Positions 1-30,705 are shown, counted from the first letter of the stretch. The stretch: DNA of 32,997 nt from an uncultured Bacillota bacterium (GCA_934427095.1 CAKRYM010000001.1:1-32997); one strand, 5' to 3'. Notes: generated from the letters alone by a model not told the origin. Made by a program: numbers and translations.

Positions 1-1
1 G

Positions 2-769
2 ATCTCGGAAATGGGGATCCGCTACTCGGCTCTCCCAGGTCATACACTGGAATTGGCCGATGCGCTCAACGAACAGCTTTCCTCCAAGTGGCGTGATCTG
101 CGAGGCATGGAAATTGTGTCCTTCGGCGTTTCCAGCGTCAAGGCCAATGAGGAAGATGAGCAAATGATCAAGGAACTGCAGCGCAATGCAGCCTTCATGG
201 ATCCTACTCGGGCGGCGGCTCATCTGGTGGGTGCACAGGCCAGCGCCATGCAGGCGGCCGCCAGCAACCCCAACGCCGGTCCCGCCATGGCTTTTATGGG
301 CATGGGAATGGCCGGACAGATGGGTGGTATGAACGCGCAGAACCTTTATCAGATGGGCGGGCAGCAGGCCCAGCCTGCCTCTGCTCCTGCACCAGCCACC
401 CCTAGCGGTTGGGTCTGTTCTTGTGGACAGAGCGACATCACCGGCAACTTTTGTCCTAACTGTGGCAACAAAAAACCAGAGCCAAAGCCTGCCGCTGACA
501 GCTGGAAATGTCCGCAATGTGGTGCCACAGTCACCGGAAAGTTCTGCCCCGAGTGTGGTAAGCCAAAGCCTGAAATAGACGGCTGGACCTGCTCCTGTGG
601 GGCGGTAAACAAGGGGAAATTCTGCGCTGAGTGTGGAGCGAAAAAGCCCGCCGGTGTCCCTCAGTATAAATGCGATAAGTGTGGTTGGGAACCGGCCGAC
701 CCCACTCATCCGCCCAAGTTCTGTCCGGAGTGCGGCGATCCTTTTGATGACGGTGATCTGCAGGGATGA
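2..769 (+). CDS. SPFH/Band-7 family protein (COG4260, B. subtilis YdjI-like), C-terminal part with four tandem zinc ribbons. The 5' end lies outside the window
   Basis: The frame is open from nt 2 with no upstream stop, so the Met at 11 is probably internal. The segment SALPGHTLELADALNEQLSSKW..GMEIVSFGVSSV..EEDEQMIKELQ looks like the end of the SPFH domain of lumpy-skin-disease-virus virion-core-like proteins. A Q/M/G/A-rich linker follows, then 4 x CxxC-x8-13-CxxC units with K/P-rich spacers. Confidence 0.7.
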   Translation: MSEMGIRYSALPGHTLELADALNEQLSSKWRDLRGMEIVSFGVSSVKANEEDEQMIKELQRNAAFMDPTRAAAHLVGAQASAMQAAASNPNAGPAMAFMGMGMAGQMGGMNAQNLYQMGGQQAQPASAPAPATPSGWVCSCGQSDITGNFCPNCGNKKPEPKPAADSWKCPQCGATVTGKFCPECGKPKPEIDGWTCSCGAVNKGKFCAECGAKKPAGVPQYKCDKCGWEPADPTHPPKFCPECGDPFDDGDLQG

Positions 770-1761
770 AGCAGGGCCGAAAAGTCGCAGTATTCTGTAC
801 CGTGGCACTGGCCTTGGCTCTGATTTTTGTGGGATACATTGATATGAGAAATCAAGGAGGTGATCTAGCGAAACTTTACGGAGGCGATGCACCGATGCAG
901 CAAGACCCTGCCGTACCCCCCGGCACATTGAGCGGCGTCACATACAGCCACACCAGCGGCATGGTTGCCAGAGCGGATTTTGCCATCACGCTTTCGCCGG
1001 AGGCCATTCTGGAAACCAGCTATTATTCGGCGCTTGATCCGGAGACGGCAGAGGACGAGGACTGGTATCACCCGTCCACCAAAGAGAATGTCCCCATCAC
1101 CGCGGCTCAGTGGTCGGATGTGGAGCAGATCATTCTGGAGCTCTACCCGCTGATGGAGCCCATCCCGGAAAACCGGCGTGAGGTGAAGCTGCCACCGGGG
1201 ATCGAAGTCATGGATGGCGGGGACTCCACCAGCCTGATGCTGACCTGGAGCACAGAGGACGGTACGCAAAGCATCCGCTATTACATGCCGAACGACCGCC
1301 GGATCCGCACACTGATCGCTCTGCTAGAGGAGTTGGCCGACCCCATTGGGCGGGAAATCCCCCGCTATGCCCCGCCGGAGCTGATGGGCTTTTATATCGG
1401 GCAGTCCGGGGCTCTCTTCTCCAAAGACTATTCTTTTCAATTCGATCGGGAGCTGTCCGACGTGCATGGGGAAGATGCTCCATATGTCCTCTACGCCAGA
1501 TTTACCCCGCCTGACCGGAATCGGGAGATCTGGGGGCAATGGACGGTGCCGGACACTATGTGGGACGACTTCGCTGCGTTTGCCCGGGAGATCGGCCTGG
1601 AGGATCAGCCGGACGGCAGATCGGAAAAACTAAACTGCACACTCTACTATTCTGACGGCAGTCAGCAGGGAAAGAAATTGGACAAAAAGATGGCGGATCA
1701 GATCCGAGACTATCTGATGCAGCTGGCTCTGCAGATGCCGGATGAACAAGCACAACGTTAA
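766..1761 (+). CDS. Hypothetical membrane-anchored protein (single N-terminal TM helix, acidic extracytoplasmic domain)
   Basis: 331-aa ORF whose ATG overlaps the upstream TGA (ATGA at 766-769), suggesting translational coupling. It has the hydrophobic N-terminus VAVFCTVALALALIFVGYI. I recognise no family. Confidence 0.55.
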   Translation: MKQGRKVAVFCTVALALALIFVGYIDMRNQGGDLAKLYGGDAPMQQDPAVPPGTLSGVTYSHTSGMVARADFAITLSPEAILETSYYSALDPETAEDEDWYHPSTKENVPITAAQWSDVEQIILELYPLMEPIPENRREVKLPPGIEVMDGGDSTSLMLTWSTEDGTQSIRYYMPNDRRIRTLIALLEELADPIGREIPRYAPPELMGFYIGQSGALFSKDYSFQFDRELSDVHGEDAPYVLYARFTPPDRNREIWGQWTVPDTMWDDFAAFAREIGLEDQPDGRSEKLNCTLYYSDGSQQGKKLDKKMADQIRDYLMQLALQMPDEQAQR

Positions 1762-1798
1762 AATCCATTGATCAAAACATAAAACAGGAGGTATGACA

Positions 1799-2206
1799 AT
1801 GAAAGGTCAAAAAGCTATGAAAATAACGTCTATTCTCATGATCATCGGTGGTATTATCGCCGCTATTGCAGGTGTTATCGCTATTCTCGGCGTCAGCGCC
1901 TTGGCAGCGATGGGAGGCAGCATGGAGGGTATTGGTTTGTTCTATGCAAGTTCCATTATTGTAACTGTAGCTTCTGTTATTCAGTTTATTGCGGGGATTA
2001 AGGGTGTTGGCGCGAGCAAAGATCCTCAGAAGGCTGCTTCCTGCATAAAGTGGGGCATTGTCATTGCAATTTTAAGCATTGTTTCTATGGTTATTGGTAT
2101 TGTTGCTGGAGGGGAATTCAGCATTACCAGTTTGGTCCTCAATTTGTTATTGCCGGGATTGTATATCTATGGCGCAATGCAGATGAAGAATGCCGCCAAC
2201 ATTTAA
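1799..2206 (+). CDS. Small polytopic membrane protein, unknown function
   Basis: ORF 1793-2206. AGGAGG at 1785-1790 favours the ATG at 1799. About four hydrophobic helices (IIGGIIAAIAGVIAILGV, IIVTVASVIQFIAGI, WGIVIAILSIVSMVIGIVAG, LVLNLLLPGLYIYG). Confidence 0.55.
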   Translation: MKGQKAMKITSILMIIGGIIAAIAGVIAILGVSALAAMGGSMEGIGLFYASSIIVTVASVIQFIAGIKGVGASKDPQKAASCIKWGIVIAILSIVSMVIGIVAGGEFSITSLVLNLLLPGLYIYGAMQMKNAANI

Positions 2207-2231
2207 TCAGATCTAGAAAGGAACAGGGGCT

Positions 2232-3080
2232 ATGGGACTCTTTGGAAAGTTATTTGATAAAAAGGAGTGTTCTATCTGCGGCGGTGAGATCGGACTGCTT
2301 GGCAACCGTAAGCTGGAGGATGGTAATCTGTGCAAAAGCTGCGCCGCTAAGCTTTCTCCCTGGTTCAGTGATCGCCGCCAGAGCACGGTGTCAGAGATCC
2401 AACAGCAGCTGTCCTATCGGGAGGCAAATCAGACGAAAGTCTCGTCATTTCACATTACCCGGACCCTGGGTGAGCGCACCAGGGTGCTGCTGGACGAGGA
2501 CGCAGGCCTGTTTATGGTCACTTCTGCCAAAAATCTGGAGGAGACCAATCCTGATGTGTTGTCCTTCTCCGATGTGACCGGATGTAAGTTGACTATTAAT
2601 GAGAGCAAAACGGAAATTCAATACAGAGATGAGGAAGGCGATCGGCAGAGTTTTAATCCCAAACGGTATGCTTATGCCTATGACTTCTACATTGTGATCA
2701 ATGTCAATCACCCCTATTTTAACGAGATCCGTTTTAAGCTCAACAACGATTCAGTGGACAATAATGCAGAAACATTGCTGGACGGACCGAACAGCATGGG
2801 TTCGTTGCGTGGCAGTTTTCGGCCTAAAATTGGCGCTATGGGAGGTAGTTCTCTTACTTCCAACGCAGAGGAAGTGCGTGCCAGTGTGGAATACCAGCAA
2901 TATGAGGCAATGGGACTGGAGATTCGCGATGCACTGCTTCAGGTTCGGCAGCAGGCACGGGATGAGGCGGCTGTAGCCGCAGCCCCTAAGACAGCGGTGA
3001 CCTGTCCTTACTGCGGAGCAACCACCACACCAGATGCCAGTGGTTGCTGCGAATTCTGCGGCGGAGCTATCAACGGATAA
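2232..3080 (+). CDS. DUF4428-like zinc-ribbon protein (N- and C-terminal CxxC..CxxC ribbons)
   Basis: The N-terminus MGLFGKLFDKKECSICGGEIGLLGNRKLEDGNLCKSCAAKLSPWF matches my memory of the DUF4428 signature. A second ribbon, VTCPYCGATTTPDASGCCEFCGG, sits at the C-terminus. Confidence 0.6.
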   Translation: MGLFGKLFDKKECSICGGEIGLLGNRKLEDGNLCKSCAAKLSPWFSDRRQSTVSEIQQQLSYREANQTKVSSFHITRTLGERTRVLLDEDAGLFMVTSAKNLEETNPDVLSFSDVTGCKLTINESKTEIQYRDEEGDRQSFNPKRYAYAYDFYIVINVNHPYFNEIRFKLNNDSVDNNAETLLDGPNSMGSLRGSFRPKIGAMGGSSLTSNAEEVRASVEYQQYEAMGLEIRDALLQVRQQARDEAAVAAAPKTAVTCPYCGATTTPDASGCCEFCGGAING

Positions 3081-3145
3081 AACCTATAAGCAATGTATCG
3101 CGAAAAAATGCAAGCAGAGAAAAATGAAAATGAAGGGAGTACACC

Positions 3146-3829
3146 ATGAAAAAGTATGAAATTTTAGGAGGCAATCTACCTGTCGTTGTATGTGAATTAT
3201 CTGCAGGCGAATCCATGATCACAGAGAGTGGCAGTATGAGCTGGATGAGCCCGAACATGAAAATGGAGACCATTTCCGGCGGTGGCATGAAGAAGATGTT
3301 TGGCCGGATGCTGTCAGGAGATTCTATTTTCCAAAATAGGTTTACTGCAGAAGGCGGGGACGGAATGATTGCTTTTGCCTCAAGCTTTCCAGGCGCAATC
3401 AAAGCACTGAATATCAGCACTGGTCATTCCATGATCGTGCAGAAAAGCGCTTTTCTTGCTTCTGAAGCAGGAGTGGAGTTGTCCATGCATTTCCAGAAAA
3501 AACTGGGCTCGGGACTCTTTGGTGGCGAAGGCTTCATTATGCAGAAGCTGAGCGGAAACGGCACTGCGTTTGTTGAAATCGATGGCCATGCGGTGGAGTG
3601 TGATCTGAGCGCCGGACAGGAGATGATAGTCAGCACAGGATATTTGGCGGCAATGGAAGAGAGCTGCACCATGGATGTTGTCGCAGTCAAGGGCGTAAAA
3701 AACATGCTGATCGGCGGAGAGGGTATTTTTAATACCGTTGTCAGAGGCCCGGGCAAGGTGATCTTGCAGACGATGCCCATCAGCAAGGTGGCTGAATTAC
3801 TGATGCCATTTTTTAGCAATAAAAAATAA
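3146..3829 (+). CDS. AIM24 / TIGR00266 (DUF124) family protein
   Basis: 227 aa with AAGGGAG 7 nt upstream. Typical family motifs: YEILGGNLPVVVCEL..GESMITESGSMSWM, GGEGFIMQKLSGNGTAFVEIDG, GEGIFNTVVRGPGKVILQTMP. Confidence 0.85.
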   Translation: MKKYEILGGNLPVVVCELSAGESMITESGSMSWMSPNMKMETISGGGMKKMFGRMLSGDSIFQNRFTAEGGDGMIAFASSFPGAIKALNISTGHSMIVQKSAFLASEAGVELSMHFQKKLGSGLFGGEGFIMQKLSGNGTAFVEIDGHAVECDLSAGQEMIVSTGYLAAMEESCTMDVVAVKGVKNMLIGGEGIFNTVVRGPGKVILQTMPISKVAELLMPFFSNKK

Positions 3830-3862
3830 ATAAATCAGAGATAGAAAGAAAGGAGAGCGGCA

Positions 3863-5317
3863 ATGAAAAACAAGTTAAAGATATCGTGCTTGCTTCTCGC
3901 GATACTGATGTTGTTTAGCCTCACGGCCTGCGGCGGCGATAATTCACTCCCTGAAGGAGACGGAGGAAATTCATCCAGTCAGGAAATGGTGTCTCCCAAG
4001 ACGATTAATACCAACCTGTGGGATCTGACCTATGATGAGGACGATGGCTGGGTCTATGAAGAGGATGATTTTTATGATGATGAAACATTCTCCAAGATCA
4101 TCCTGACGATCCCCAATGAAGCAGGCGATTCGTACATCATCAATGCGGAGATCCGTGTTTCCATTGAGGATCCATATTCCTTCCGCAACTATCTCACCAG
4201 CTACGGTTTTGACGAGTATGAGTACGCAGTCAATCAGGCCTATGATTTTACCCCCGTGGGCGGTATCGACTGCCTCGAACAGGAAGGAAACTATTGGGGG
4301 TCTCCGTGCCTGCGCTACTTTAATCGTGTAGAAGGAGCTGGCGCCACTGTGTTCCTTGAGATCATCGGTGAATACGAGGACGAGCGCGTTGATAAGCTGC
4401 TGTCCGGACTGACGATCCATCTGGAGGATACGGGGAATGAGGATGGCCCCTGGTCTTGGGAAGGAGAGCCCTTTTCCACCGAATCGCACAGCGCCATGGT
4501 GGGAACCTACACACTGGATAGCCAGTGGATCCCCATCACGGATTGCATTATAACAAAGGAAACATTCAATCATGCAGCTGCTGCTATTGGAAATCAGGTA
4601 TTTCTTCTGGTAGATGGTGCGTTGAAACGCTATGATTACGACGGTTCATCCCTGACTTTTGCAGAGGATATTGCACTGGATAGTGAATATGAAAACATTT
4701 CCGCTGACACGACAGGATCCCTCTGGCTTGGGAATTTCATGGAGCCGCTGATCAGCTGGAAGGATGGCGCAAAGACAGCATCCTATGATGGGCCTGATTA
4801 TGTGGCCATGCACCCGTCCGGGACTTGGGGAATCAGTTGGTTCTCCAGCGCGGAGTGCGAGAAGATTACCCTCTCTGGCGGTACGATAGCAACAGAGCCC
4901 ATCGTTTTCAAAGAGGTTGATTTGGTCAGCCATCTGATGGTCGATGAGAACCACATCTATGTCTGCGGATCTGCTGTAGATGAAAGCGGTCATAAGGTGT
5001 TTGTCTACGACACGGCAGGCAACTTGCAGCTGACGCTGGCAGATTCCGATGGAAGCGGTTTGGGTAGCGTCACCTTTGTTACAGAAACAGCAAACGGCTA
5101 TCTCGCCTTAGATGGAAATATGCGTGAGGTAGTGCTCTGGGCAAAGGATGGCACTTATATTGGCAAAGCGGATGACAGTGATCTGTTCGGCACAAGTTAC
5201 CCGTGGTTCTGCGGCGGGACGAAGCTTTCCGATGGCAGTATCCTAGTCATTATGACAGAGACCAGAGCGGATAAATCCGCGCAGGAGCTGGTTGCTTTCA
5301 AGCTCAGTGGATTTTAA
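3863..5317 (+). CDS. Lipoprotein, unknown function
   Basis: AAGGAG RBS. Signal peptide with lipobox LFSLTAC-GG. The 484-aa mature part is acidic, and the C-terminal half has repeat-like beta-rich segments. I recognise no family. Confidence 0.65.
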   Translation: MKNKLKISCLLLAILMLFSLTACGGDNSLPEGDGGNSSSQEMVSPKTINTNLWDLTYDEDDGWVYEEDDFYDDETFSKIILTIPNEAGDSYIINAEIRVSIEDPYSFRNYLTSYGFDEYEYAVNQAYDFTPVGGIDCLEQEGNYWGSPCLRYFNRVEGAGATVFLEIIGEYEDERVDKLLSGLTIHLEDTGNEDGPWSWEGEPFSTESHSAMVGTYTLDSQWIPITDCIITKETFNHAAAAIGNQVFLLVDGALKRYDYDGSSLTFAEDIALDSEYENISADTTGSLWLGNFMEPLISWKDGAKTASYDGPDYVAMHPSGTWGISWFSSAECEKITLSGGTIATEPIVFKEVDLVSHLMVDENHIYVCGSAVDESGHKVFVYDTAGNLQLTLADSDGSGLGSVTFVTETANGYLALDGNMREVVLWAKDGTYIGKADDSDLFGTSYPWFCGGTKLSDGSILVIMTETRADKSAQELVAFKLSGF

Positions 5318-5329
5318 GGAGGGGAAAAC

Positions 5330-6400
5330 ATGAAAAACACAAAGTTCCTTTTCCTGTTCCTTGCGTTGCTGATGCTGGTCAGCCTCACGGCCTGCGGCAA
5401 AGATAATTCGGAAAATACGGAAACAGGTCCTGTTGTATTGGAAGTCGGAGACTTTGAGCTGATCTACAAGGGCGCAAGTATGATGAAGGATTATGATGGA
5501 AACGACGCCCTCGTTTTGACGCTGGACTTCATCAACAATAGTAAGGAAACCACCAACTATTTTTGGTCCATTTACGAAACAGCTGTGCAGAACAACACGG
5601 AGCTGGAGATGGCCATAGTTTATCTCAACGTGGACACCATGGATACCGTGGACAACAGCCAGCATAATGACGTGGCTCCCGGCGACACACTTGAGATTCA
5701 AACTGCCTTTGAGCTGAATGATACTACCGGCGAGGTAGAGGTGACTTTCGAGGAGATGATCGGCAACAAAAACGACTCCATCACCATTGATCTCTCCACC
5801 CTCAGCCAGGAATCCGCAGAAAGCGGTACAGAGACGCTTACCGGCGGCAAGACCGCGGGCTCCAACGGGGAGGCCGATGTATTCAACGGCGATCAGCTGC
5901 GCGACTGGTGGAACGGCGAATGGTACGGCTGGTGGGTGATGACCGGTTGCTGGGGCGATTATGAAGACATGGAAGGCCAGTGGTGGGACATCTGCGGTAC
6001 CATTGACATTGGCGAGGACGGTATGGGTACCGTCACCCTCTGGGATGTGGACTACATGAAGTCGGAGCCCATGGTATCGGCCTCGGTCAGCCTGAATGAA
6101 GCCGGAACCAGCGAATACGGTACCATGATGTCCGAGGGTGGATGGTTCATGAGTATTCCCCTGGAACATTCGGACTGGATCGTTGACCCGGGGCTTTTGG
6201 ATTATCCTAACATGATCCACATCGATGGCAACTATGAAAACGGCGAGGATGAATTCTTCTATGATATCTACCTGCGTCCCTGGGGAACCTACTGGGATGA
6301 TGTGACTGAGGAAGATTTACCCTACTATTATTCCGACTGGTATCTGCCTTTGATCGAAGCAGGCGAGTCTATGCCGGATAGCATCGGAGTAGGCCTGTAG
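5330..6400 (+). CDS. Lipoprotein with a DUF5067/DUF4352-like N-terminal domain and a Trp-rich C-terminal domain
   Basis: AGGAGG RBS. Lipobox LVSLTAC-GK. The segment FELIYKGASMMKDYDGNDALVLTLDFINNSKETTNYFWS..VAPGDTLEIQTAFEL resembles the DUF5067 Ig-like fold of Firmicutes lipoproteins. The C-terminal domain is rich in W, D and E. Confidence 0.65.
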   Translation: MKNTKFLFLFLALLMLVSLTACGKDNSENTETGPVVLEVGDFELIYKGASMMKDYDGNDALVLTLDFINNSKETTNYFWSIYETAVQNNTELEMAIVYLNVDTMDTVDNSQHNDVAPGDTLEIQTAFELNDTTGEVEVTFEEMIGNKNDSITIDLSTLSQESAESGTETLTGGKTAGSNGEADVFNGDQLRDWWNGEWYGWWVMTGCWGDYEDMEGQWWDICGTIDIGEDGMGTVTLWDVDYMKSEPMVSASVSLNEAGTSEYGTMMSEGGWFMSIPLEHSDWIVDPGLLDYPNMIHIDGNYENGEDEFFYDIYLRPWGTYWDDVTEEDLPYYYSDWYLPLIEAGESMPDSIGVGL

Positions 6401-6501
6401 AACTGAAGTGTCTAACAACCAATGCGTCTGTGACCGGTGCGGCAATATGAAAAACCTGAGCGTGCTTTATGTCGCAGGAGGTATACGCATATAAATGGGG
6501 G

Positions 6502-6531
6502 TTGCTCCCGCTCCATCGGGGGCGGGAGCAA
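6502..6531 (+). terminator. GC-rich hairpin between lipoprotein genes (possible weak terminator or attenuator)
   Basis: ttgctcccgc (6502-6511) pairs perfectly with gcgggagcaa (6522-6531) around a 10-nt loop. There is no clean T-tract after it (tctaaattt). Confidence 0.3.
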
Positions 6532-6580
6532 TCTAAATTTGCGCAATGGTATGGAACGGTAGAGTTTGAAAGGAGCGGTT

Positions 6581-7756
6581 ATGAGAAGGATATCCAAACG
6601 AGTGATCGCATTTTTTCTGGCACTGGTTCTGATGCTGTTTCTCTGTGCCTGTGCGCAAAAGCCGCCATTGGGAACGGAAGTAGACGAGCCGAAAGTAAGT
6701 GCAGGCAAAGAAACGTTACCCAATATGATTGACAAGATGGATGTGCAGACCGAATTTTCCGAGGAAGCAGAACAATCTCTTGATTGGCTGCGCGACAGAA
6801 TGGATTTCCCGAAGACGATGTTCGGCGCAGCGTATTTGGGCTATACCGGAGAAACTTCTGTTGGAGATTGGCTTGCGGAAGCAGATCAGGCGATGCTGCA
6901 GCAATACCCCTTTATTTCAGAAATCGACGCGGATCACATCATCGGCAGCGAGGGACATCTGTACTGTATCGTGCCGGTCGATGAAAATGCGACAGTTGCC
7001 ATCAACCGTGTGCAATGGAATGAGAACACATATACCTATGAGGTTGCTGAAGTCCTCTATCGGTCGGAGAGTGGTGAACCGATACTGCTCTTTGCAAATC
7101 TCGACGGCGTTGCATACGAGGCCGACACGCAGCTCTGGATTACTGACAACGCAGGGAATACCTGCGAATGGTATCCATCGCTGGATGCCATGAGCTGTCT
7201 TGCGCCGTGTGTATCGGAAGCTGGAGAATACCTTTCGTTTGACTTTACGGAATACGGATGGCTGGACGCTCCTTCCGAGCTTACACAGTGGCTGAGTGAC
7301 GGCTATAGCGGAGTATATGCCTCCGGACTTGGCGGCTGCTGGACGACACAGGCAACGGCATGGGATACGGACCGTACTGCCAATTACTACCTGTGGTTCT
7401 TTCCTGAGGATGAAGCGGGCGGAAGTGTCGATGTGTATTGGGAGTACGAGGGCACTGATCTTTCTGAAGTGATGTGGGAAGAGGTGTGGAGCGGCTCCTG
7501 GACGATCACATCCGTCATGGATGGGCCAAGCTATGTGACCATTAGTCTGTCCCTTGTGGGCGGTAAAAACTATGGCATTGTAGACGGCCCATACTATATC
7601 TCTGAGACATATCCGCTTCTGATCAGTCCTAGCGGTGAGGAGATGGTGATTGGCGCGGGGGCTAACGGCATCAGTCTGCCGTTTATGCCGAAGTACGAAT
7701 CGCAGATGTGTATACTGACACTGGACAGCTGGCTCACGGAAAGCCCATTAGGCTGA
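6581..7756 (+). CDS. Lipoprotein, unknown function
   Basis: The listed ORF starts at TTG 6566. The ATG at 6581 follows AAGGAG (6570-6575). Signal peptide MRRISKRVIAFFLALVLMLFLCAC-AQ has a lipobox. I recognise no family. Confidence 0.65.
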   Translation: MRRISKRVIAFFLALVLMLFLCACAQKPPLGTEVDEPKVSAGKETLPNMIDKMDVQTEFSEEAEQSLDWLRDRMDFPKTMFGAAYLGYTGETSVGDWLAEADQAMLQQYPFISEIDADHIIGSEGHLYCIVPVDENATVAINRVQWNENTYTYEVAEVLYRSESGEPILLFANLDGVAYEADTQLWITDNAGNTCEWYPSLDAMSCLAPCVSEAGEYLSFDFTEYGWLDAPSELTQWLSDGYSGVYASGLGGCWTTQATAWDTDRTANYYLWFFPEDEAGGSVDVYWEYEGTDLSEVMWEEVWSGSWTITSVMDGPSYVTISLSLVGGKNYGIVDGPYYISETYPLLISPSGEEMVIGAGANGISLPFMPKYESQMCILTLDSWLTESPLG

Positions 7757-7835
7757 TTTTCTGCAGATTCCAAGGGGGACATGGTCTGCTTTGGTATGGA
7801 GCGTTGTAGCACCGGCATGGAAAGGAGGCATTTAG

Positions 7836-8969
7836 ATGCCATCACAGGTAACAAATTATCAGTGCCCAGCCTGTACGGGGCCACTCCATTTTGCGGGAGA
7901 ATCCGGAAAACTGGAGTGCGAGTACTGCGGCACCAGTTACGATGTAGCGGAGATCGAGGCGCTTTATGCAGAGAAAGAGGAAAAGGCGGCGGCAGCTCAG
8001 CAGGCGGCAGAGGAAATGAACACGGAACGGACCACATCTTCCGATGATGGAGGTACGTGGGACACCTCAGGCTTCTGTGCGGACTGGGGCGCAGAGGGCG
8101 AGGCCATGCGGGCCTATAGCTGCCCAAGCTGCGGCGCAGAGCTCATCTGTGATGAAAGCACGGCGGCAACATCCTGCCCCTACTGCGGGAATCCTACGGT
8201 GGTACCGGGACAGTTTTCCGGGCAACTGAAACCGGATTTCGTCATTCCCTTTAAGCTGAGTAAGGAAGACGCCGTAAAGGCTCTCAAGAACCACTACAAA
8301 GGAAAATTTTTCTTACCAAAAAGTTATATTGGCGAAAATCATGTTCAGGAAATCCAGGGGATCTATGTTCCCTTCTGGATGTTCGATGGCGAGGCAGAGG
8401 GTGATGCTTATTATGAAGCTACACACTCTCATACTTACCGTTCCGGTGACTATGAGATCACGGAAACGAAACATTACGACGTTTACCGGGCAGGATATGT
8501 CACGTTTGAGAAGGTGCCTGTGGATGCCTCTAGTAAGATGCCGGATAATCACATGGATTCTATTGAACCTTATGACTATAATCAACTAAAACCTTTTTCC
8601 ACGGCGTATCTCCCCGGTTTTCTTGCCGATAAATTCGATGTGACAGTGGAGGAATGCCGGCAGAGAGCGGATCAGCGCTGCGAGGGAACCTTATCCTCGG
8701 CGCTGCGCAGCTCTATAGGACATTATGATACCTGTACGCTTAGAGGGGAAAGCATCAGCCTGAAAAGGGGAAAAGTACATTACGCACTGATGCCCGTCTG
8801 GATGCTGAACACCAAGTGGAAGGGTAAGGATTTCTTGTTTGCCATGAATGGACAGACTGGAAAGCTGGTAGGTAATCTGCCGGTCAGCTGGGGAAAGTTC
8901 TGGGGATTGTTTGCTGCCATAGCCGTCCCCCTGTCGATACTTAGCTCGGCACTAATTATTGTGCTGTGA
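7836..8969 (+). CDS. YdjG-like membrane protein with two N-terminal zinc ribbons and a C-terminal TM helix
   Basis: GGAGG lies 8 nt upstream. Ribbons are YQCPACTG..LECEYCGTSY and YSCPSCGAEL..SCPYCGNP. A conserved-looking core (FVIPFKL..A....HYKGKFFLPK, GIYVPFWMFDG) is followed by a C-terminal TM helix (FWGLFAAIAVPLSILSSALIIVL). The architecture matches B. subtilis YdjG-type proteins. Confidence 0.55.
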   Translation: MPSQVTNYQCPACTGPLHFAGESGKLECEYCGTSYDVAEIEALYAEKEEKAAAAQQAAEEMNTERTTSSDDGGTWDTSGFCADWGAEGEAMRAYSCPSCGAELICDESTAATSCPYCGNPTVVPGQFSGQLKPDFVIPFKLSKEDAVKALKNHYKGKFFLPKSYIGENHVQEIQGIYVPFWMFDGEAEGDAYYEATHSHTYRSGDYEITETKHYDVYRAGYVTFEKVPVDASSKMPDNHMDSIEPYDYNQLKPFSTAYLPGFLADKFDVTVEECRQRADQRCEGTLSSALRSSIGHYDTCTLRGESISLKRGKVHYALMPVWMLNTKWKGKDFLFAMNGQTGKLVGNLPVSWGKFWGLFAAIAVPLSILSSALIIVL

Positions 8970-8985
8970 GAAGGGGGTATCAGAT

Positions 8986-10311
8986 ATGAAGAAAACATAC
9001 TCCGTTTTTGTGCTGATTTTCCTGCTGACCCTGTCTCTCTGTACGCCTGCTCTAGCTTTGACGGAATATGGCGTGATCTATGATGAAACAGGTGAGCTGG
9101 GATCTAATACTCTGCTTATGCAGGGCGAACAGACCCTGCCAGAGCTTTCCCAGACGCTGGGCATCGACCTGCGGGTGGATGTACTAACCCAAATCAGCTA
9201 TGACAGCATCACCGATACCGCTGCGGGGATCTATGCCAGATACGATTATGGCTATGGCGAGGAAAAGGAAGGCGCTACGCTGACCATTCTGATGGAAATG
9301 CAGGATACAGGTACCTACGCCATGCCCGCCGACGGCTGGTGCATTTACGCCAATCTGAGCGAAGAGCGGGGCAGTAGCCAGGCCCTGGCCGACGCCATCT
9401 ACAATGCGGTACAGCCCAATATGGTGGAGCGGGCGTGGAACGGTGAGGATATCACCATGAGTGCCACCGCACTGACCCAGGCGGTAGACGCTATGGCAGA
9501 GGCAGCAGAAGATTACATCCTCACAAATTGCCCACTGGACAACTCCGGTGAGGATGTGGGTATGGGAGCATCCCAAGTATCTGAGCCCACTGAGCAAAGC
9601 GGCGTAACTATGCAGTATGTATTTGACATCAGTGACCTCCTTACCTACGAAGAATGGGCGGAACTGGAGGCTCGGGCCGAAACCTTTTCCCAACGCCATC
9701 ATTGCGGAATCTATTTTGTCATTGTGGATGACTACACAGAATATGGGTCTGGCAGCGTCTACGACATCACCAGCCAGCTCTATCATAACAGTGCGCTTGG
9801 CCTCGGTGCTGATCGGGATGGGTTAATCGTTCTGCTTAGCATGGATGAACGGGATTATGCCATGTTCGTCTATGGAGAGTACGCTGAATATGCTTTCGAT
9901 GAATATGGGCAGGAAAAGTTGGAGGAAGCATTCCTCGAAGATTTTGGGTACAATGACTGGTATAGCGGCATTTCCCACTATCTGGATACTTGTGACGAAT
10001 ATCTGACTAAGGCCGAAGAAGGCAAACCGGTGCGCCCTTCTTACTGGGGGGGGGTCCTCATGATGACGGGGCTTTCCTGTCTGGTGGCAGGGATAATCTG
10101 CCTTTTACTTATGCGTAACATGAAAACGGTCTATCAAAAGGTGGAGGCTGATACATACCTCACCGCAGGCGGATTACACCTGACAGAGCAGTACGACCAC
10201 TACACCCATACCACTGAGACACGTACCAAAATTGAAAAAGCAAGCTCAAGTAGCAGCTCAAGCAGCAGCGAAAGCGGTGGCGGCGGTAGCGGCCGTAGCG
10301 GGAAATTCTGA
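8986..10311 (+). CDS. TPM-domain protein (YdjH/YgcG-like) with a TM helix and a Ser/Gly-rich tail
   Basis: The ATG at 8986 follows GAAGGGGG, and the listed start at 8959 overlaps the upstream gene. It has a signal peptide. A clear TPM-like segment is YVFDISDLLTYEEWAELEARAETFSQRHHCGIYFVIVDDY...GLIVLLSMDERDYAMFVYGE, and a weaker N-terminal TPM-like half precedes it. TM helix GGVLMMTGLSCLVAGIICLLL. The tail SSSSSSSSSESGGGGSGRSGKF is typical of this family. Confidence 0.75.
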   Translation: MKKTYSVFVLIFLLTLSLCTPALALTEYGVIYDETGELGSNTLLMQGEQTLPELSQTLGIDLRVDVLTQISYDSITDTAAGIYARYDYGYGEEKEGATLTILMEMQDTGTYAMPADGWCIYANLSEERGSSQALADAIYNAVQPNMVERAWNGEDITMSATALTQAVDAMAEAAEDYILTNCPLDNSGEDVGMGASQVSEPTEQSGVTMQYVFDISDLLTYEEWAELEARAETFSQRHHCGIYFVIVDDYTEYGSGSVYDITSQLYHNSALGLGADRDGLIVLLSMDERDYAMFVYGEYAEYAFDEYGQEKLEEAFLEDFGYNDWYSGISHYLDTCDEYLTKAEEGKPVRPSYWGGVLMMTGLSCLVAGIICLLLMRNMKTVYQKVEADTYLTAGGLHLTEQYDHYTHTTETRTKIEKASSSSSSSSSESGGGGSGRSGKF

Positions 10312-10480
10312 CAAGGGATCTTCGCCATGAAGAAGTTGATCCTGCACCGATTCTTTCCGGCGCTTCTGTGTATGACGCTGGTTCTGAGCCCACTCCTCTT
10401 GGGTGAAGGCATAATCACTCCTATGGGTGAGAAAAGAAACAGGAACATGAGATATTTAGCGGAGTGAAAGGAGAACTTGT

Positions 10481-11050
10481 ATGGGCATTTTTGATAAGCT
10501 GAAACATTCTGCCATGGATACCGTCATGACGGCTGCCACATCCATCGGAAATAAAAGCGAAACCTTTACCTTCACAACGCTTCCTGAGAACCTTGCCGAA
10601 CTGCAGTCTCTCAGAGAGGCAACCCTTGATACCCCATTTCAGACGGCGGCGCTGACTGTCCTGGCGTTGTGTGCCTATGCCGCAGATCGACAGATCGGTC
10701 TTGATATGCTGAACTGGCTGCGCGGACCACGACCTTTGAACGGACAGGACATTTCTTTCCTGAATGACCGCTTCCGTGATGGAAAGACCTACCTGCCTTT
10801 CTCTTATTTTGTTGGCTCTACTGCCGATAACAACTACACGCCCATCCAGCCCTATACCATTCGAATCGAAAGCAACCATGTTTCTGGTGAGGAGCAGGGC
10901 TATATGAAACTGTTTATTCCCTGCGGTGGCGCGGATTCTCCTCGCCCGATCAAGCTACGTCAGCGTGGCAGTGATGGGAAGTGGTTCCTCTGGGAGCAGT
11001 ATCTGCTCACCGGTGTCCGCACACCAAAGGCCGCCGATCCATGGGCGTAA
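10481..11050 (+). CDS. Hypothetical soluble protein
   Basis: 189 aa with AAGGAG 8 nt upstream. Same CTG-type codon usage as the upstream cluster. I recognise no family. The N-terminus is MGIFDKLKHSAMDTV. Confidence 0.55.
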   Translation: MGIFDKLKHSAMDTVMTAATSIGNKSETFTFTTLPENLAELQSLREATLDTPFQTAALTVLALCAYAADRQIGLDMLNWLRGPRPLNGQDISFLNDRFRDGKTYLPFSYFVGSTADNNYTPIQPYTIRIESNHVSGEEQGYMKLFIPCGGADSPRPIKLRQRGSDGKWFLWEQYLLTGVRTPKAADPWA

Positions 11051-11154
11051 AACAAATGGAGTATTCGCTGAGGAATCGAATCTGGTAATGGAAAGTCAGG
11101 ATGCCTATGGCGATCAATGAGGGAAACTTTCGCATTTGATAGAGGGTGCCGATT

Positions 11155-11532
11155 ATGAAAACAGTTCTATTTATATCATCCAATAAGATGCTCGGGCAAG
11201 GATTGTCGGCGGCCTTTCAATCAAAGTCGCAATTAGATTTTTTGTGGGCAGCCCAGCTCAATTATGCACAGGCTATCATGGGAGTCGATATTTTCCATGC
11301 TGATGTGGTGATATTGGATATTGTGGATCAGACAGATATGGATCAGGCAGTTGAAATCTGCCAGTCAATTCGCCAGAATGAACAGGGCGTAAAGATATTG
11401 CTTCTGGTTAGACCGGAACAAGCTGTTGTGCGCAAAGTAGCTGTGGACACCAAAAATACTGGTTTGGCAGATGATTTCGTCTTTTATGACAGTTCCCTGA
11501 CCTATCTACTTGCAAAGTTGGAAGCATTATAA
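11155..11532 (+). CDS. Stand-alone receiver (REC)-like domain protein, degenerate active site
   Basis: The listed ORF starts at GTG 11146. The ATG at 11155 follows GAGGG. It shows a CheY-like alternation: TVLFISS (beta1), DVVILDI (beta3, Asp retained), KILLLV (beta4), ADDFVFYD (beta5). The acidic pair after beta1 and the conserved Lys are absent. Confidence 0.5.
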   Translation: MKTVLFISSNKMLGQGLSAAFQSKSQLDFLWAAQLNYAQAIMGVDIFHADVVILDIVDQTDMDQAVEICQSIRQNEQGVKILLLVRPEQAVVRKVAVDTKNTGLADDFVFYDSSLTYLLAKLEAL

Positions 11533-11753
11533 TTTTTGTTGTATCAAAGGGATCTGCGTTAGAAAGAACGCATGTTTTGATAGATTGGTAAAAAGCCATC
11601 ATGAAATAGATGGTAGGAAAATATATTGTTTTAAAGTGGCTTTGATCAATTCAGAGCCGCTATTTCTTTTTCTTTTGCGATGACGCTCATATCATCAAGA
11701 ATACGGCAATAGAGCTGCCGGGAAGGTTTATGGATAACGCATGGATTTTGCCC

Positions 11754-24063: not shown

Positions 24064-24225
24064 GTTACGGCCTCTCTTTCTGCTTAGTGTTGTTCTTTAC
24101 ATAGCCTTCTTCTATCTGTGGAAAAGAGGAATATACTAAATTGCATCCTTAGGAAAAGAACAAGATAACATTCGCCTGAAAGCGGTATTTTCCTGCCAAG
24201 GCAAGTGGGGAAAGGAGATTGCTTC

Positions 24226-24873
24226 ATGGAAAAGGCCAGAAAAGGAAGAATCAAAACTCGCCGTAAGAAGCTGTTTCGGCTCCTTTGCCTCAGCCTTTTT
24301 TTGCTGGGACTGGCTGTTTACGCGGAATGGCGCTTGGCCCCTCGCTTAGCGGTATTGGCTGCGCAACAGGCTCATGCCATGGCCATGGCGGAAGTCGCCA
24401 AAGCAGCCAGACAGGAGATTGCCCAGGCAGAAGCCGTGAATTATCAGGAGCTGATGCATTTTGAGCGGGATGAACAGGGCTATATCACCTTGCTCACTAT
24501 GGATACGGCCCTGGTAAACCAAGTGATGAGTGATACGGCTTTGACCGTGGAAGCGAGCCTGGAAGACATGAGCAAGGAAAAGCTGTCTCTGCCTTTAGGG
24601 GTTCTTTCTGGTAGTGAGATTTTGTCTGGCTTTGGCCCGGATATTTCTTTTCGTATGCGGGCTGCCTCTGCTCCCACCATTACCTTAGAGGATGATTTCC
24701 TTTCCGCAGGGATTAATCAAACTCTGCACAGCATTTACCTGAACATTAAAACCGAAATTCGGATTATTGTCCCTTTTTCCGAGGAAACCACGGAAGTGGA
24801 AGTCTGGCTTTTACTGGCCGAGGGCATTATCGTGGGCTATACGCCGGATACCTATCTTTCCTTAGGCAATTAG
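24226..24873 (+). CDS. yunB: Sporulation protein YunB
   Basis: The ATG at 24226 has AAAGGAG upstream. N-terminal TM helix. Conserved YunB motifs: LPLGVLSGSEILSGFGPDISFRM, FLSAGINQTLHSIYLNIKTEIRIIVPF and IIVGYTPDTYL. Confidence 0.75.
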   Translation: MEKARKGRIKTRRKKLFRLLCLSLFLLGLAVYAEWRLAPRLAVLAAQQAHAMAMAEVAKAARQEIAQAEAVNYQELMHFERDEQGYITLLTMDTALVNQVMSDTALTVEASLEDMSKEKLSLPLGVLSGSEILSGFGPDISFRMRAASAPTITLEDDFLSAGINQTLHSIYLNIKTEIRIIVPFSEETTEVEVWLLLAEGIIVGYTPDTYLSLGN

Positions 24874-24916
24874 GGAAATTTTCAGGATGATTTCAGACGG
24901 AATCAGCCGGGAAGGT

Positions 24917-24945
24917 TTGATTATTCGAATCAGCTGTGATATAAT
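24917..24945 (+). promoter_or_regulatory. Sigma-A promoter upstream of the PBP gene (TTGATT-17-TGaTATAAT)
   Basis: -35 TTGATT at 24917-24922, a 17-nt spacer ending in TG-A (extended -10), and -10 TATAAT at 24940-24945. Confidence 0.55.
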
Positions 24946-24987
24946 ACCAAAATGGAAACTCCAAGGTAAGGAAAGGAGTAGAAGAAA

Positions 24988-27807: not shown

Positions 27808-27859
27808 TCGGTATCTGTAATCGGATGATTATTTTATATTTGTTTTGGAGGTAATTACC

Positions 27860-28624
27860 ATGTCAGGACATTCTAAATGGGCCAACATCAAACGCAAAAA
27901 AGGTGCTAATGATGCAGAGCGCGGCAAGATTTTTACCAAAATCGGTCGCGAAATTCAGGTAGCAGTAAGACAGGGGGGCCCTGATCCTGCGGGCAACTTC
28001 CGGTTGAAGCTTTGCATCCAGAAGGCGAAGACCAATAATATGCCTTCGGACAATATTAAACGCTGCATTGAAAAAGCCGCTGGCCTGGGAGAATCCGCTG
28101 CCATTGAGGAATTCTTCTATGAAGGATACGGCGCCGGTGGGGTGGCCATTCTCTGCGAAATGATGACGGACAACCGTAATCGTTGCGCCAGCGATATTCG
28201 GTATATCTTTAGCCGCAATAACGGTAACTTGGGGGAAACGGGTTGCGTTGGCTATATGTTTGACCGTAAAGGCCAAATCACCGTAGAGCTGAATGGGGCG
28301 GATGAGGACGAGCTGATGATGGCTGCTTTGGACGCTGGGGCGGAAGATATGGTCACGGATTATGACGAGGAAGAGGACGTAACCACTGCTACCATTTATA
28401 CCGCTCCAGGGGATCTTGGGGCGGTGCAGGATGCCTTAACCACAGCGGGCTACAATGTGGTCACCGGCGAAGTGATTATGAAACCCAGCAATACCGTGGA
28501 AATCACGGATGTGGAAACCGCGGGCAAGCTCATGAAACTGATCTGGGCTTTGGAAGATAATGACGACGTGAACAATGTCTATTCCAATCAGGAAATCCCG
28601 GATGAGATTATGGCCCAGCTCTAA
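27860..28624 (+). CDS. yebC: YebC/PmpR family DNA-binding transcriptional regulator
   Basis: The ATG at 27860 follows GGAGG. The MSGHSKWANIKRKKGANDAERGKIFTKIGREI signature is unmistakable. Confidence 0.92.
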   Translation: MSGHSKWANIKRKKGANDAERGKIFTKIGREIQVAVRQGGPDPAGNFRLKLCIQKAKTNNMPSDNIKRCIEKAAGLGESAAIEEFFYEGYGAGGVAILCEMMTDNRNRCASDIRYIFSRNNGNLGETGCVGYMFDRKGQITVELNGADEDELMMAALDAGAEDMVTDYDEEEDVTTATIYTAPGDLGAVQDALTTAGYNVVTGEVIMKPSNTVEITDVETAGKLMKLIWALEDNDDVNNVYSNQEIPDEIMAQL

Positions 28625-28634
28625 ACAAGAGAGA

Positions 28635-28666
28635 AAACCCCTCCCTGTTTCAGGGAGGGGTTTTTG
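28635..28666. terminator. Bidirectional intrinsic terminator (yebC / convergent anti-sigma gene)
   Basis: aaacccctccct-gtttc-agggaggggttt, followed by tttt on the plus strand and preceded by an A-run. Confidence 0.75.
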
Positions 28667-28704
28667 TGTGGGAACAAAGGTTTTACGGATTTTTTCTAGG
28701 CTGG

Positions 28705-30523: not shown

Positions 30524-30705
30524 AGCGCCGCCTCCTTTCTTGTTTTATGGATTAATGACGAAAAATCAGGTTTCGTTACAGGCAAAGAAAAATTTTTTTC
30601 TGTTTTTTTTTGCTTGCGGCTTAGCCTCGATTATACCAAGCTGTGCAAAGAAAAACAATGACCTAGGGTGCGTATGAAACTGGCCTTTGCTGCATAAAAC
30701 GAAGC

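Follow-up and report, generated by a model that had tools for sequence, protein, structure and literature searches.

A conserved gene cluster of gut Oscillospiraceae, probably a PspA-independent relative of the YdjGHI membrane-stress module of Bacillus subtilis

Results and Discussion

The window analysed here, the whole stretch of 32,997 nucleotides from an uncultured Bacillota bacterium, begins with a block of genes that lie on the plus strand, to which all coordinates below refer. An ORF check of the window recovered all eleven genes that the original prediction had described between positions 1 and 11050 as a same-strand series with short gaps or overlaps, including the ATGA overlap of g1 and g2 (766–769). 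The block had probably been closed one gene too early, as it is co-directional over positions 1–11532 and a twelfth gene, g12, which accompanies the cluster in related genomes, probably belongs to it. Within the block the intergenic distances range from −4 to 79 nt, except for the gap between g7 and g8 (165 nt, which grows to 180 nt with the g8 start set to the ATG at 6581) and the gap before g11 (169 nt). Pfam profile HMMs backed every domain that had been named, i.e. Band_7_1, DUF4428, AIM24, DUF5067 and TPM_phosphatase.

The first gene, g1 (2–769), is the 3' part of a YdjI/SamI-like gene and encodes the end of an SPFH/Band_7_1 domain, a low-complexity stretch and zinc ribbons. Its start is cut off by the end of the contig and the window holds residues 220–474 of 474. 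In another assembly of the same genome the full-length gene is present (L001:8580–10004; L numbers denote the loci compared) and its product matches PF13421 (Band_7_1, E = 1e-19) at residues 52–277, therefore about 58 residues of the SPFH domain fall into the window. The PF13421 match and the ribbons bear out the proposed SPFH protein with a zinc-ribbon tail, although most of the SPFH domain lies outside the window. The stretch behind the domain is rich in Q, A, G and M, the tail contains CxxC...CxxC zinc ribbons with a Pfam DZR match in the same place, and no TM segment was found in g1, which is soluble. The second member of the core, g9 (7836–8969), encodes a tail-anchored, YdjG/SamG-like protein that carries a pair of zinc ribbons at its N-terminus, then a conserved domain of some 230 aa, and a single TM segment at its C-terminus. 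At E ≤ 1e-3 its family numbers 7144 representative clusters, the family alignment shows no exchange at any of the eight zinc-ribbon cysteines, and a homologue is named ‘TFIIB-type zinc ribbon-containing protein’ at NCBI. The third gene, g10 (8986–10311), codes for a YdjH/SamH-like membrane protein (PF04536 TPM_phosphatase, E = 2e-20), in which an N-terminal signal/TM segment is followed by an extracytoplasmic region with the TPM domain (residues 212–339) and, behind a further TM segment, by a cytoplasmic tail rich in Ser and Gly. Direct reading gives the eight zinc ribbons that had been counted before, four in g1 and two each in g4 and g9. Homologues of g1 and g10 are present in 64 and 62, respectively, of the 80 genome loci L005–L084. 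The published descriptions of YdjI, YdjG and YdjH match the architectures of g1, g9 and g10 (PMC8581546, PMC11237479); YdjH is described as a TPM protein, and in YdjG a pair of zinc ribbons is combined with a domain and a TM segment (PMC11237479). All three Ydj-type components are thus found as predicted, their likeness to the B. subtilis proteins resting on Pfam families, architecture and these published descriptions.

Among the accessory genes, g2 (766–1761; 331 aa, N-terminal TM anchor) gave no Pfam match even at E ≤ 1 and has recognisable homologues in only five genome loci, the slot after g1 being otherwise occupied by divergent TM-anchored proteins of 187–363 aa. It is followed by g3 (1799–2206, with the start at 1799 set by the gene callers and an alternative at 1793), a small polytopic membrane protein of 135–137 aa with three to four hydrophobic segments and no match in Pfam, which is found directly before g4 in eight genome loci and in most metagenome loci anchored on g4. 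The product of g4 (2232–3080) is a cytoplasmic zinc-ribbon protein (PF14471 DUF4428, E = 1e-16), whose DUF4428 ribbon at the N-terminus and second ribbon at the C-terminus flank a beta-rich middle domain that includes a long helix; the family alignment shows invariant cysteines. Comparison of its AF2 model (pLDDT 79) with known folds gave nothing significant, the best hits being the bacterial PH domains 3dcx and 3hsa. A cytoplasmic protein of the AIM24/TIGR00266 family is encoded by g5 (3146–3829; PF01987, E = 3e-72; TIGR00266, 105 bits; PDB 1yox (PA3696), E = 6e-41).

The three predicted lipoproteins all carry a lipobox. For g6 (3863–5317; 484 aa, LTAC) no known domain was found in Pfam and homologues occur in six genome loci, g7 (5330–6400; LTAC) has an N-terminal DUF5067 (PF16729, E = 2e-24) and is found in 15 genome loci and in most g4-anchored loci, and g8 (6581–7756; 391 aa, LCAC), again with no known domain, belongs to a family of 24 proteins spread over 16 genome loci, where paralogues frequently stand behind g10. 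The g8 ORF opens at a TTG at 6566, and the ribosome-binding site AAGGAG belongs to the ATG at 6581. Behind g10, g11 (10481–11050; 189 aa) had been described as a soluble unknown; no signal peptide was detected, in line with the first word, but the protein does have a family, DUF6935 (PF22043, E = 5e-63). Its AF2 model (pLDDT 84, pTM 0.81) found no fold match in the PDB. Homologues are present in 16 genome loci and 26 of the 38 sufficiently long g4-anchored loci, located before g1 or after g10. The last gene, g12 (11146–11532; 128 aa), shows a faint resemblance to receiver domains and a weak GlnR_1st match (E = 0.006). A paralogue lies upstream of g1 beside a two-component system, and homologues flank the cluster in L001, L004, L005, L006, L009, L013, L086 and L095.

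The hairpin reported for the gap between g7 and g8 is real and forms a stem-loop at 6493–6540 with a 16-bp core (6497–6532), the 180-nt gap as a whole folding with −63.5 kcal/mol (z = −2.9). No T-run comes after the stem-loop, and it matches no Rfam family; the same junction carries it in four relatives (L004, L005, L013 and L088), with one compensatory pair. A terminator-like hairpin with an 11-bp stem (11635–11661) and a T-run (tail ATTTCTTTTT, the whole element at 11635–11671) follows g12 and is likely the end of the transcription unit. The gaps of 165–180 and 169 nt, one of them with a strong hairpin, may mean that the block is transcribed as more than one unit.

Genes with HisKA_7TM, HATPase and Response_reg plus GerE domains adjoin the cluster in L001 (this genome), L006, L014, L025 and L026, and such a 7TM-kinase/LuxR two-component system is also found beside it in most long metagenome loci; this adjacency suggests that the system may control the cluster. 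SLH-domain proteins are encoded directly upstream in L001, L004 and L109. The wider chromosomal context is of a housekeeping type, with ABC transporters, a class A PBP, YebC, SpoIIP and YunB. As SpoIIP and YunB inside the window indicate, the host is a spore-former.

In order to follow the core through related genomes we counted its linkage over 78 g9-anchored genome loci, and the adjacency of g10 over 76. The SPFH gene lies directly upstream of g9 in 36/78 loci and upstream with other genes between in another 22/78, the TPM gene follows g9 directly in 59/76, and in 12 loci of this set g9 and g10 occur without g1 within reach. The B. subtilis order G-H-I was seen in 3 of the 78. Enterococcus gallinarum has the same triad, annotated as SPFH, hypothetical and TPM, and Comamonas has a pair of SPFH and TFIIB-type zinc-ribbon genes. 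Thus g1, g9 and g10 are usually adjacent as I-G-H in Clostridia and some Bacilli, and the different order that had been noted is no peculiarity of this locus; it is common across Clostridia, where SPFH, YdjG-like and TPM genes follow each other without PspA, and is also found in Erysipelotrichaceae and Enterococcus. With a validated probe PspA was absent from all 84 loci examined, and upstream of position 1, where a pspA had been considered possible, there is none in the 8.5 kb before g1.

Since the SPFH gene stands directly upstream of the YdjG-like gene in many loci, the genes between them are a lineage-specific insertion, yet they are not random. In Oscillospiraceae a set of additional genes has entered the space between g1 and g9 or joined the cluster at its ends. 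Of the metagenome loci anchored on g4 (DUF4428), 34/44 have g1 upstream, the other ten being without detectable g1, and 27/30 have the YdjG-like gene downstream, so that the repeated co-localisation that had been set as a check beforehand was found in genome and metagenome loci alike. In most loci g11 is located before g1 and not after g10 as here, and in L035 g4 is found after g10; the linkage of g4 and g11 to the core outlives such changes in gene order. In fact g4, g11, g3, g6–g8 and g12 stay with the core through rearrangements, down to about 56–60% protein identity. The composition is a mosaic, with g2, g5 and g6 found only in close relatives. AIM24 occurs in 4/80 genome loci, and between orthologous g4 and g6 genes the AIM24 gene of this locus has its counterpart in a TM2 protein in Dysosmobacter sp. 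Phy; in the metagenome loci this slot holds a TM2-domain protein in 41/56 and AIM24 in 2/56. AIM24 is therefore not a defining component but one of two proteins able to occupy the slot, and the argument that had been built on yeast Aim24 and SPFH proteins at the inner membrane carries little weight, because the slot usually holds a TM2 protein.

[quoted passage not shown] In contrast to this locus and the 84 related loci, that operon contains pspA as the effector, its order is G-H-I and not I-G-H, and it is without the eight extra genes found here between I and G and the two after H. YdjI has been published with a single zinc-finger/ZnR motif, whereas g1 has four zinc ribbons. The 7TM-kinase/LuxR two-component system is a further difference, as the Bacillus operon is reportedly part of the sigma-W regulon. 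In Clostridia, Erysipelotrichaceae and Enterococcus there are three-gene SPFH/TFIIB-type zinc-ribbon/TPM operons, made up of orthologues of g1, g9 and g10 in the order seen here and again with no PspA; they carry only generic annotation and are without the DUF4428, DUF6935, AIM24/TM2 and lipoprotein genes of the Oscillospiraceae version. The Lia system of Firmicutes (liaIH-liaGFSR) is likewise an envelope-stress module beside a two-component system with a LuxR/NarL-type regulator, but its effector is the PspA homologue LiaH with LiaI, it has no SPFH, TPM or YdjG-like protein, and the kinase here differs by its 7TM sensor region (HisKA_7TM). In the flotillin/NfeD operons (floA-yqeZ, floT-yuaF) an SPFH scaffold is also encoded with dedicated membrane partners, yet flotillins are self-anchored in the membrane and have NfeD proteins as partners, while g1, which lacks a TM segment, is paired with the zinc-ribbon and TPM proteins. 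AIM24/TIGR00266 also occurs in a membrane-linked stress cluster, the ‘group I’ Ter clusters (Anantharaman, Iyer and Aravind 2012, cited in PMC5822837); Pfam found no TerD, TerB, TerC or TelA genes here, and AIM24 is optional.

The cluster could also be an accretion without functional unity, in which only g1, g9 and g10 cooperate and the rest are unrelated envelope genes in a permissive site, carried by co-transcription. The contiguous triad in 36/78 loci, the large differences of the inserted set between genera, the replacement of AIM24 by TM2, the confinement of g2 and g6 to close relatives and the way in which the strong, conserved stem-loop and the two long gaps split the block all fit this idea. 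We nevertheless regard it as unlikely, since g4 and g11 occur together in 14 genome loci and still lie beside the triad despite rearranged order and 40–60% protein divergence, a linkage that chance hitch-hikers would hardly keep, and the reciprocal g4-anchored search recovers g1, g9 and g10 in most loci. A role in wall or spore-envelope assembly, with lipoproteins, TPM protein and SLH neighbours organising peptidoglycan or S-layer synthesis in growth or sporulation on an SPFH scaffold, would agree with the upstream SLH-domain proteins, the spore-forming host, the mislocalised cell-wall synthesis in B. subtilis ydjG/H mutants (PMC8581546) and the YdjG central domain reported as YpeB-related (PMC11237479). 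As no peptidoglycan or S-layer enzyme is part of the cluster and most triad-only loci have no SLH neighbours, it appears improbable, and it overlaps with the stress-module reading rather than excluding it.

More improbable still is an anti-phage or abortive infection system, in which the SPFH/zinc-ribbon scaffold would sense membrane damage by phages and AIM24 or TM2 would be the exchangeable effector. Conflict systems typically show such an exchangeable slot within an otherwise conserved frame, and DUF4428 stands in for the membrane-targeting N-terminus in some relatives of the membrane-bound nuclease SNIPE, which cuts phage DNA during injection (bioRxiv 10.1101/2025.11.03.685801). The N-terminus of g4 matches phrog_888 and DUF4428 relatives are found on viral contigs, and work cited in PMC5822837 ties AIM24 to Ter clusters affecting phage and colicin resistance. 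Distant DUF4428 proteins occur alone on these contigs, without the triad, therefore DUF4428 is not specific to this system. The cluster matched no PADLOC models beyond zinc-ribbon noise, Pfam found no enzymatic effector domain of any kind, such as a nuclease, NTPase or protease, the flanks contain housekeeping and sporulation genes and no defence island, and the cluster is broadly kept across the family and not patchy between strains. Nothing in the PADLOC result or the housekeeping context thus favours the envelope-triggered phage defence that had been considered before.

Conclusion

We propose, with a probability of about 0.6, that this chromosomal block of a gut Oscillospiraceae bacterium is related to the YdjGHI (SamGHI) membrane-stress module of B. 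subtilis but enlarged and independent of PspA. The function we infer and all steps of the mechanism are drawn by analogy, modelled on SamGHI (PMC8581546; bioRxiv 10.64898/2026.02.06.704340). In this model g9 and g10 would form a membrane receptor, and its extracytoplasmic TPM domain in g10 would act jointly with g2 and the lipoproteins in reporting on the envelope's condition. The receptor would gather g1, the SPFH protein of the cytosol, in foci at the membrane. Additional adaptors beneath the membrane may be g4, with its zinc ribbons, and g11, AIM24 or TM2 could be an alternative partner or output, and the adjoining two-component system might control expression much as LiaRS controls liaIH. 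The cluster itself is real and conserved in gut Oscillospiraceae, where g4 (DUF4428), g11 (DUF6935), g3 and lipoproteins of the g7/g8 type are the recurrent new partners of the core.

Results and Discussion

The cluster comprises twelve co-directional open reading frames on the plus strand (g1 to g12, window 1–11532), most of them preceded by good ribosome-binding sites, which confirms the same-strand gene cluster of the original prediction and extends it to twelve genes. Pfam searches likewise support the domains that had been assigned to g1, g4, g5, g7 and g10. At its core are g1, g9 and g10, whose likeness to YdjI, YdjG and YdjH of Bacillus subtilis (renamed SamI, SamG and SamH) was judged from Pfam families and architecture against the published descriptions. 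The gene g1 is cut by the 5' end of the window, with only residues 220–474 inside, and the rest was read from L001, another assembly of the same genome region. The full-length protein of 474 aa carries a Band_7_1/SPFH domain (PF13421, E = 1e-19, residues 52–277 of the L001 copy) followed by a Q/A/G/M-rich stretch and four CxxC...CxxC zinc ribbons, and shows no hydrophobic segment. [quoted passage not shown] In g9, CxxC pairs at residues 10/28 and 96/114 form two zinc ribbons, whose cysteines are invariant across the family, and a single TM segment (358–376) lies at the C-terminus. This agrees with YdjG/SamG, described as a membrane protein with two N-terminal zinc ribbons, a central domain and a TM segment (PMC11237479); for YdjG itself the central domain is reported to have an NTF2-like, YpeB-related fold. 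Adjoining this YdjG-type gene, as expected for YdjH/SamH, g10 encodes a TPM membrane protein (TPM_phosphatase, PF04536, E = 2e-20) with an N-terminal signal/TM segment and a TM segment beyond the TPM domain. PDB sequence searches with g1, g10 and g11 gave nothing useful. The protein g10 and its closest relatives are 430–450 aa long vs 260–290 aa for most TPM partners, and the extra ~200 N-terminal extracytoplasmic residues (window 8986–9620) had no Pfam match and may represent a second, degenerate TPM-like domain.

To place the triad among its relatives, we used the g9 family, which comprises 7144 representative clusters at E ≤ 1e-3. A diverse profile of 27 members led to 80 species-representative genome loci with 10-kb flanks (L005–L084), in which genes were called homology-first with amino-acid-composition scoring and labelled by phmmer against the window proteins. 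Over the 78 loci with a called g9, g1 is located immediately upstream of g9 in 36 and upstream with other genes between them in 22, while the Bacillus G-H-I order with g1 downstream was found in three; 12 loci had no g1 within reach of g9 and in the remaining five the contig was too short upstream. Gene g9 is directly followed by g10 in 59 of 76 loci. Uninterrupted I-G-H triads were found in Oscillospiraceae, Lachnospiraceae, Faecalibacterium and Erysipelotrichaceae. Using tblastn on annotated records we also found a triad in Enterococcus gallinarum, the nearest Bacilli relative seen (g1 E = 2e-70, g9 E = 9e-61), whose products bear the annotations SPFH domain-containing protein, hypothetical protein and TPM domain-containing protein, as well as a pair of SPFH and TFIIB-type zinc-ribbon proteins in Comamonas. 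The E. gallinarum triad (L165, NZ_CP116511.1, 16673–31722) is located on a 484-kb 'plasmid' together with dnaX, recR, tmk, holB and the ribosomal protein genes rplKAJL, a content by which this replicon resembles a chromosome or a chromid.

No PF04012 protein is encoded among the called genes of L001 or of locus L004, and an E. coli PspA probe, itself recognised as PspA_IM30 with E = 9e-49, matched none of the ORFs of 84 loci in phmmer at E ≤ 10. A pspA gene upstream of the window, as considered in the original prediction, was not found in the 8.5 kb 5' of g1 in L001, and the single operon with pspA that characterises YdjGHI/SamGHI is not present here. From the g1 placement counts and the negative PspA probe it follows that the I-G-H order without pspA is the norm for the g9 family outside Bacillus. 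The gene order, which had been regarded as different, is therefore the usual one, although g1 does come first and is separated from g9 by eight genes; these represent an insertion into an otherwise compact operon.

The accessory genes were counted over the same 80 genome loci. The DUF4428 gene g4 is present in 20 of them, followed by g11 (DUF6935) and g8-type lipoproteins with 16 each, g7 (DUF5067) with 15, g3 with eight, g6 with six, g2 and g12 with five each and g5 (AIM24) with four; g4 and g11 occur together in 14 loci. As a reciprocal test, a metagenome search was anchored on the g4 family and 80 further loci were mapped. When only loci with enough flank are considered, g1 is found upstream in 34 of 44, g9 downstream in 27 of 30 and g11 in 26 of 38. 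Thus the predicted co-localisation in relatives was recovered from both anchors. The genes g3, g4, g7, g8 and g11 stay linked to the triad at 56–60% identity even if the order changes, as g11 precedes g1 in the commonest gut version vs following g10 in the window, and g4 sits after g10 in the genome locus L035. That the linkage outlasts divergence and reordering argues for a functional coupling of these five genes to the triad and against chance neighbourhood. Accretion without any functional coupling is less likely for them, and it is possible for g2, g5 and g6.

In the commonest human-gut arrangement, whose extra genes were checked with Pfam, divergently transcribed genes for a response regulator, a HATPase protein and a 7TM kinase are followed by those for a g12-like protein, an SLH protein, g11, g1, a TM-anchored protein of 187–363 aa, g3, g4, a DUF5640 lipoprotein, a TM2-domain protein, g7, a lipoprotein of ~290 aa, g9, g10 and g8. 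At the g2 position, this version encodes a 363-aa protein (L109:8434–9525) with a C-terminal CPAC...CAEC zinc ribbon, which adds another zinc-ribbon protein to the system; g2 of the window does not have this ribbon.

The AIM24 protein g5 is a full-length family member according to PF01987 (E = 3e-72, 243 bits vs a cut-off of 25.7) and TIGR00266 (104.9 bits vs 96.6), and it matches PDB 1yox (E = 6e-41). Only a small clade has this gene, comprising the window, L005, L006, L009, L013, L086 and L088. The place between the orthologous g4 and g6 is taken by a TM2 protein in Dysosmobacter sp. Phy, and among the 56 metagenome loci where this position is visible 41 encode TM2, two AIM24 and 13 neither, making TM2 (PF05154) the majority occupant in gut metagenomes. 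This TM2 protein (L004:5355–6014; L109:11209–11868) consists of a ~150-aa N-terminal domain without assignment and the C-terminal TM2 domain. Several neighbours of AIM24 in the larger membrane system originally suggested are linked to the triad, but AIM24 itself is optional. Different from the Ter/TelA clusters with AIM24, Pfam found none of the TerD, TerB, TerC and TelA families in the twelve window products.

Among the other products, g4 (DUF4428, E = 1e-16), g7 (DUF5067, E = 2e-24) and g11 (DUF6935, E = 5e-63) belong to Pfam families, while g2, g3, g6 and g8 had no Pfam match. Lipoboxes are present in g6, g7 and g8; a single TM segment lies at the N-terminus of g2, and g3 contains three to four hydrophobic segments. 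Structures of g4 and g11 were modelled from shallow alignments of database matches. The AlphaFold2 model of g11 is confident (pLDDT 84, pTM 0.81), with helices in the N-terminal half and a four-stranded sheet after it, but the Foldseek comparison proposed for this soluble protein revealed no relative in the PDB (best E = 0.6). Two DUF6935 homologues (L050:7821–8618, minus strand, and L054:1313–2080) start with a lipoprotein signal peptide and have a long linker, whereas g11 of the window and most other copies have no such signal; based on these signals the domain can apparently work on either side of the membrane and would be extracellular in some genomes. The model of g4 (pLDDT 79) shows an N-terminal zinc ribbon, a helix, a beta-rich domain (~77–170), a long helix and a C-terminal ribbon. 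Foldseek found no significant fold match for it; the best by probability were the bacterial PH domains 3dcx and 3hsa (~0.7, non-significant), which is only a hint at a PH-like domain. SNIPE, a membrane-bound nuclease cutting phage DNA at injection, is reported to have homologues without TM segment whose N-terminal domain is either PH or DUF4428 (bioRxiv 10.1101/2025.11.03.685801), and from this both domains may play a similar membrane role, again as a hint and not a result. The N-termini of g1, g4 and g11 are similar (MGLIKAAF, L001:8580–8610; MGLFGKLF, window 2232–2260; MGIFDKLK, 10481–10510), the motif being highly conserved in the g4 family. It presumably resembles the N-terminal amphipathic membrane-binding helix of PspA/Vipp1.

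The intergenic gaps in the block range from −4 to 95 nt except for two larger ones, 165–180 nt between g7 and g8 and 169 nt 5' of g11. The hairpin originally noticed in the g7-g8 gap is real, a strong stem-loop (window 6493–6540) with a 16-bp core and no T-run. The loci L004, L005, L013 and L088 all keep it between g7 and g8, and one pair is compensatory. An Rfam scan of the block assigned it to no family; it may serve mRNA processing or stability, or act as an attenuator within the cluster. A terminator-like hairpin is located 3' of g12. It is overlapped by the sole Rfam match, an L20_leader (window 11587–11674), which is sub-threshold (27 bits vs a gathering score of 58.7, E = 0.07) and most likely due to chance. 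A promoter scan was uninformative on internal promoters, as the site count was not above that of shuffled sequence.

The 8.5 kb 5' of g1 in L001 encode a GerE-domain protein, a 7TM sensor kinase (HisKA_7TM), a HATPase protein and a Response_reg+GerE regulator, together with a g12 paralogue, two small unknown proteins and an SLH fragment. The set of separate HATPase protein, HisKA_7TM kinase, LuxR/GerE-type response regulator and small g12-like protein (L001:1–7050; L109:1251–5088) adjoins the cluster here and in many relatives, often divergently transcribed. Downstream in the window follow genes for a PadR regulator, ABC transporters and an EamA transporter and, at 24205–31596, YunB, SpoIIP, a class A penicillin-binding protein, YebC and a zf-HC2/DUF4825 anti-sigma factor. 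These genes identify the context as the ordinary chromosome of a spore-forming Clostridium, and close homologues are named Dysosmobacter, Oscillibacter, Flavonifractor and Evtepia. A mobile-element or prophage origin was rejected because of the housekeeping flanks and because matches to viral contigs are limited to distant DUF4428 proteins without the triad: six IMG/VR contigs (L167–L172) encode proteins 30–56% identical to g4 but no SPFH, YdjG-like or TPM gene. An IS110 transposase and three serine recombinase genes are located a few kb 3' of the cluster in L004 (16459–21140), L005 and L013, though not in the window, which suggests a mobile element inserted nearby in these three.

In B. subtilis the membrane proteins YdjG and YdjH recruit the soluble SPFH protein YdjI, which stabilises PspA foci (PMC8581546), and a 2026 preprint, in which YdjGHI was renamed SamGHI, argues for a membrane stress sensor with PspA-independent effects (bioRxiv 10.64898/2026.02.06.704340). 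By analogy, g9 and g10 would form a membrane receptor with g1 as the recruited scaffold. In the most likely assignment, to which we commit, the extracytoplasmic products (g2, g6–g8 and the TPM domain of g10) would act in sensing, the cytosolic proteins with zinc ribbons or DUF6935 would serve as sub-membrane adaptors, AIM24 or TM2 as alternative partner or output and the neighbouring two-component system as regulator. Gene content and linkage are the only established part; all functional steps are ones that we infer. A role in phage defence, which had been considered before, is not supported, as PADLOC-DB 2.0 gave only zinc-ribbon-level matches (E ≥ 3e-4; PDC-S64, Cas12f), none spanning a full model, PHROGs matches were confined to families of unknown function such as phrog_888 for the N-terminus of g4, with no defence family, none of the products is an enzymatic effector and the surrounding genes are housekeeping ones. 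The SLH neighbours and the wall phenotype of Bacillus ydjG/H suggest a role in the cell wall, S-layer or spore envelope, which overlaps with the receptor and scaffold assignment. Going further, the cluster could be a self-contained, PspA-independent envelope-surveillance machine of ~12 genes in abundant gut Clostridia, with an SPFH scaffold linked by zinc-ribbon adaptors to extracytoplasmic lipoprotein sensors and exchangeable AIM24/TM2 outputs, all under dedicated 7TM-kinase/LuxR control, its adaptors being the DUF4428 protein, perhaps with a PH-like domain, and DUF6935 with its predicted fold and no solved relative. This is tentative, and we put its probability at roughly 0.3.

Conclusion

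The triad and its link to PspA have already been published (PMC11237479, PMC9239133, PMC8581546). Neither the I-G-H form without PspA nor its expansion in Oscillospiraceae by DUF4428, DUF6935, TM2/AIM24 and lipoproteins was described in the papers found by full-text literature searches, in line with the earlier statement that no system of this composition was known. In these searches AIM24 was not linked with SPFH or TPM, DUF6935 was not mentioned at all, and DUF4428, TM2/AIM24, DUF5067-type lipoproteins and a two-component system were, like DUF6935, not tied to SPFH or Ydj-type proteins. SPFH proteins and YdjGHI/SamGHI are only now emerging as membrane-stress sensors in Bacillus, and the PspA-free I-G-H form, the common one in Clostridia, fits the recent proposal of PspA-independent SamGHI roles. 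The Oscillospiraceae expansion offers candidate partners of the module, namely DUF4428, DUF6935, TM2/AIM24, DUF5067-type lipoproteins and the two-component system. From comparative genomics we regard the cluster as a solid lead with testable partners, its most exotic-looking component AIM24 proving optional, and it places bacterial AIM24 and TM2 in a concrete genomic context that can be tested. If the envelope-surveillance reading were true, it would give bacterial AIM24, TM2, DUF4428 and DUF6935 their first functional context. The relatives of the host (Dysosmobacter, Oscillibacter, Flavonifractor) are common in the human gut, where the module may aid the survival of bile, antimicrobial peptides or phage.
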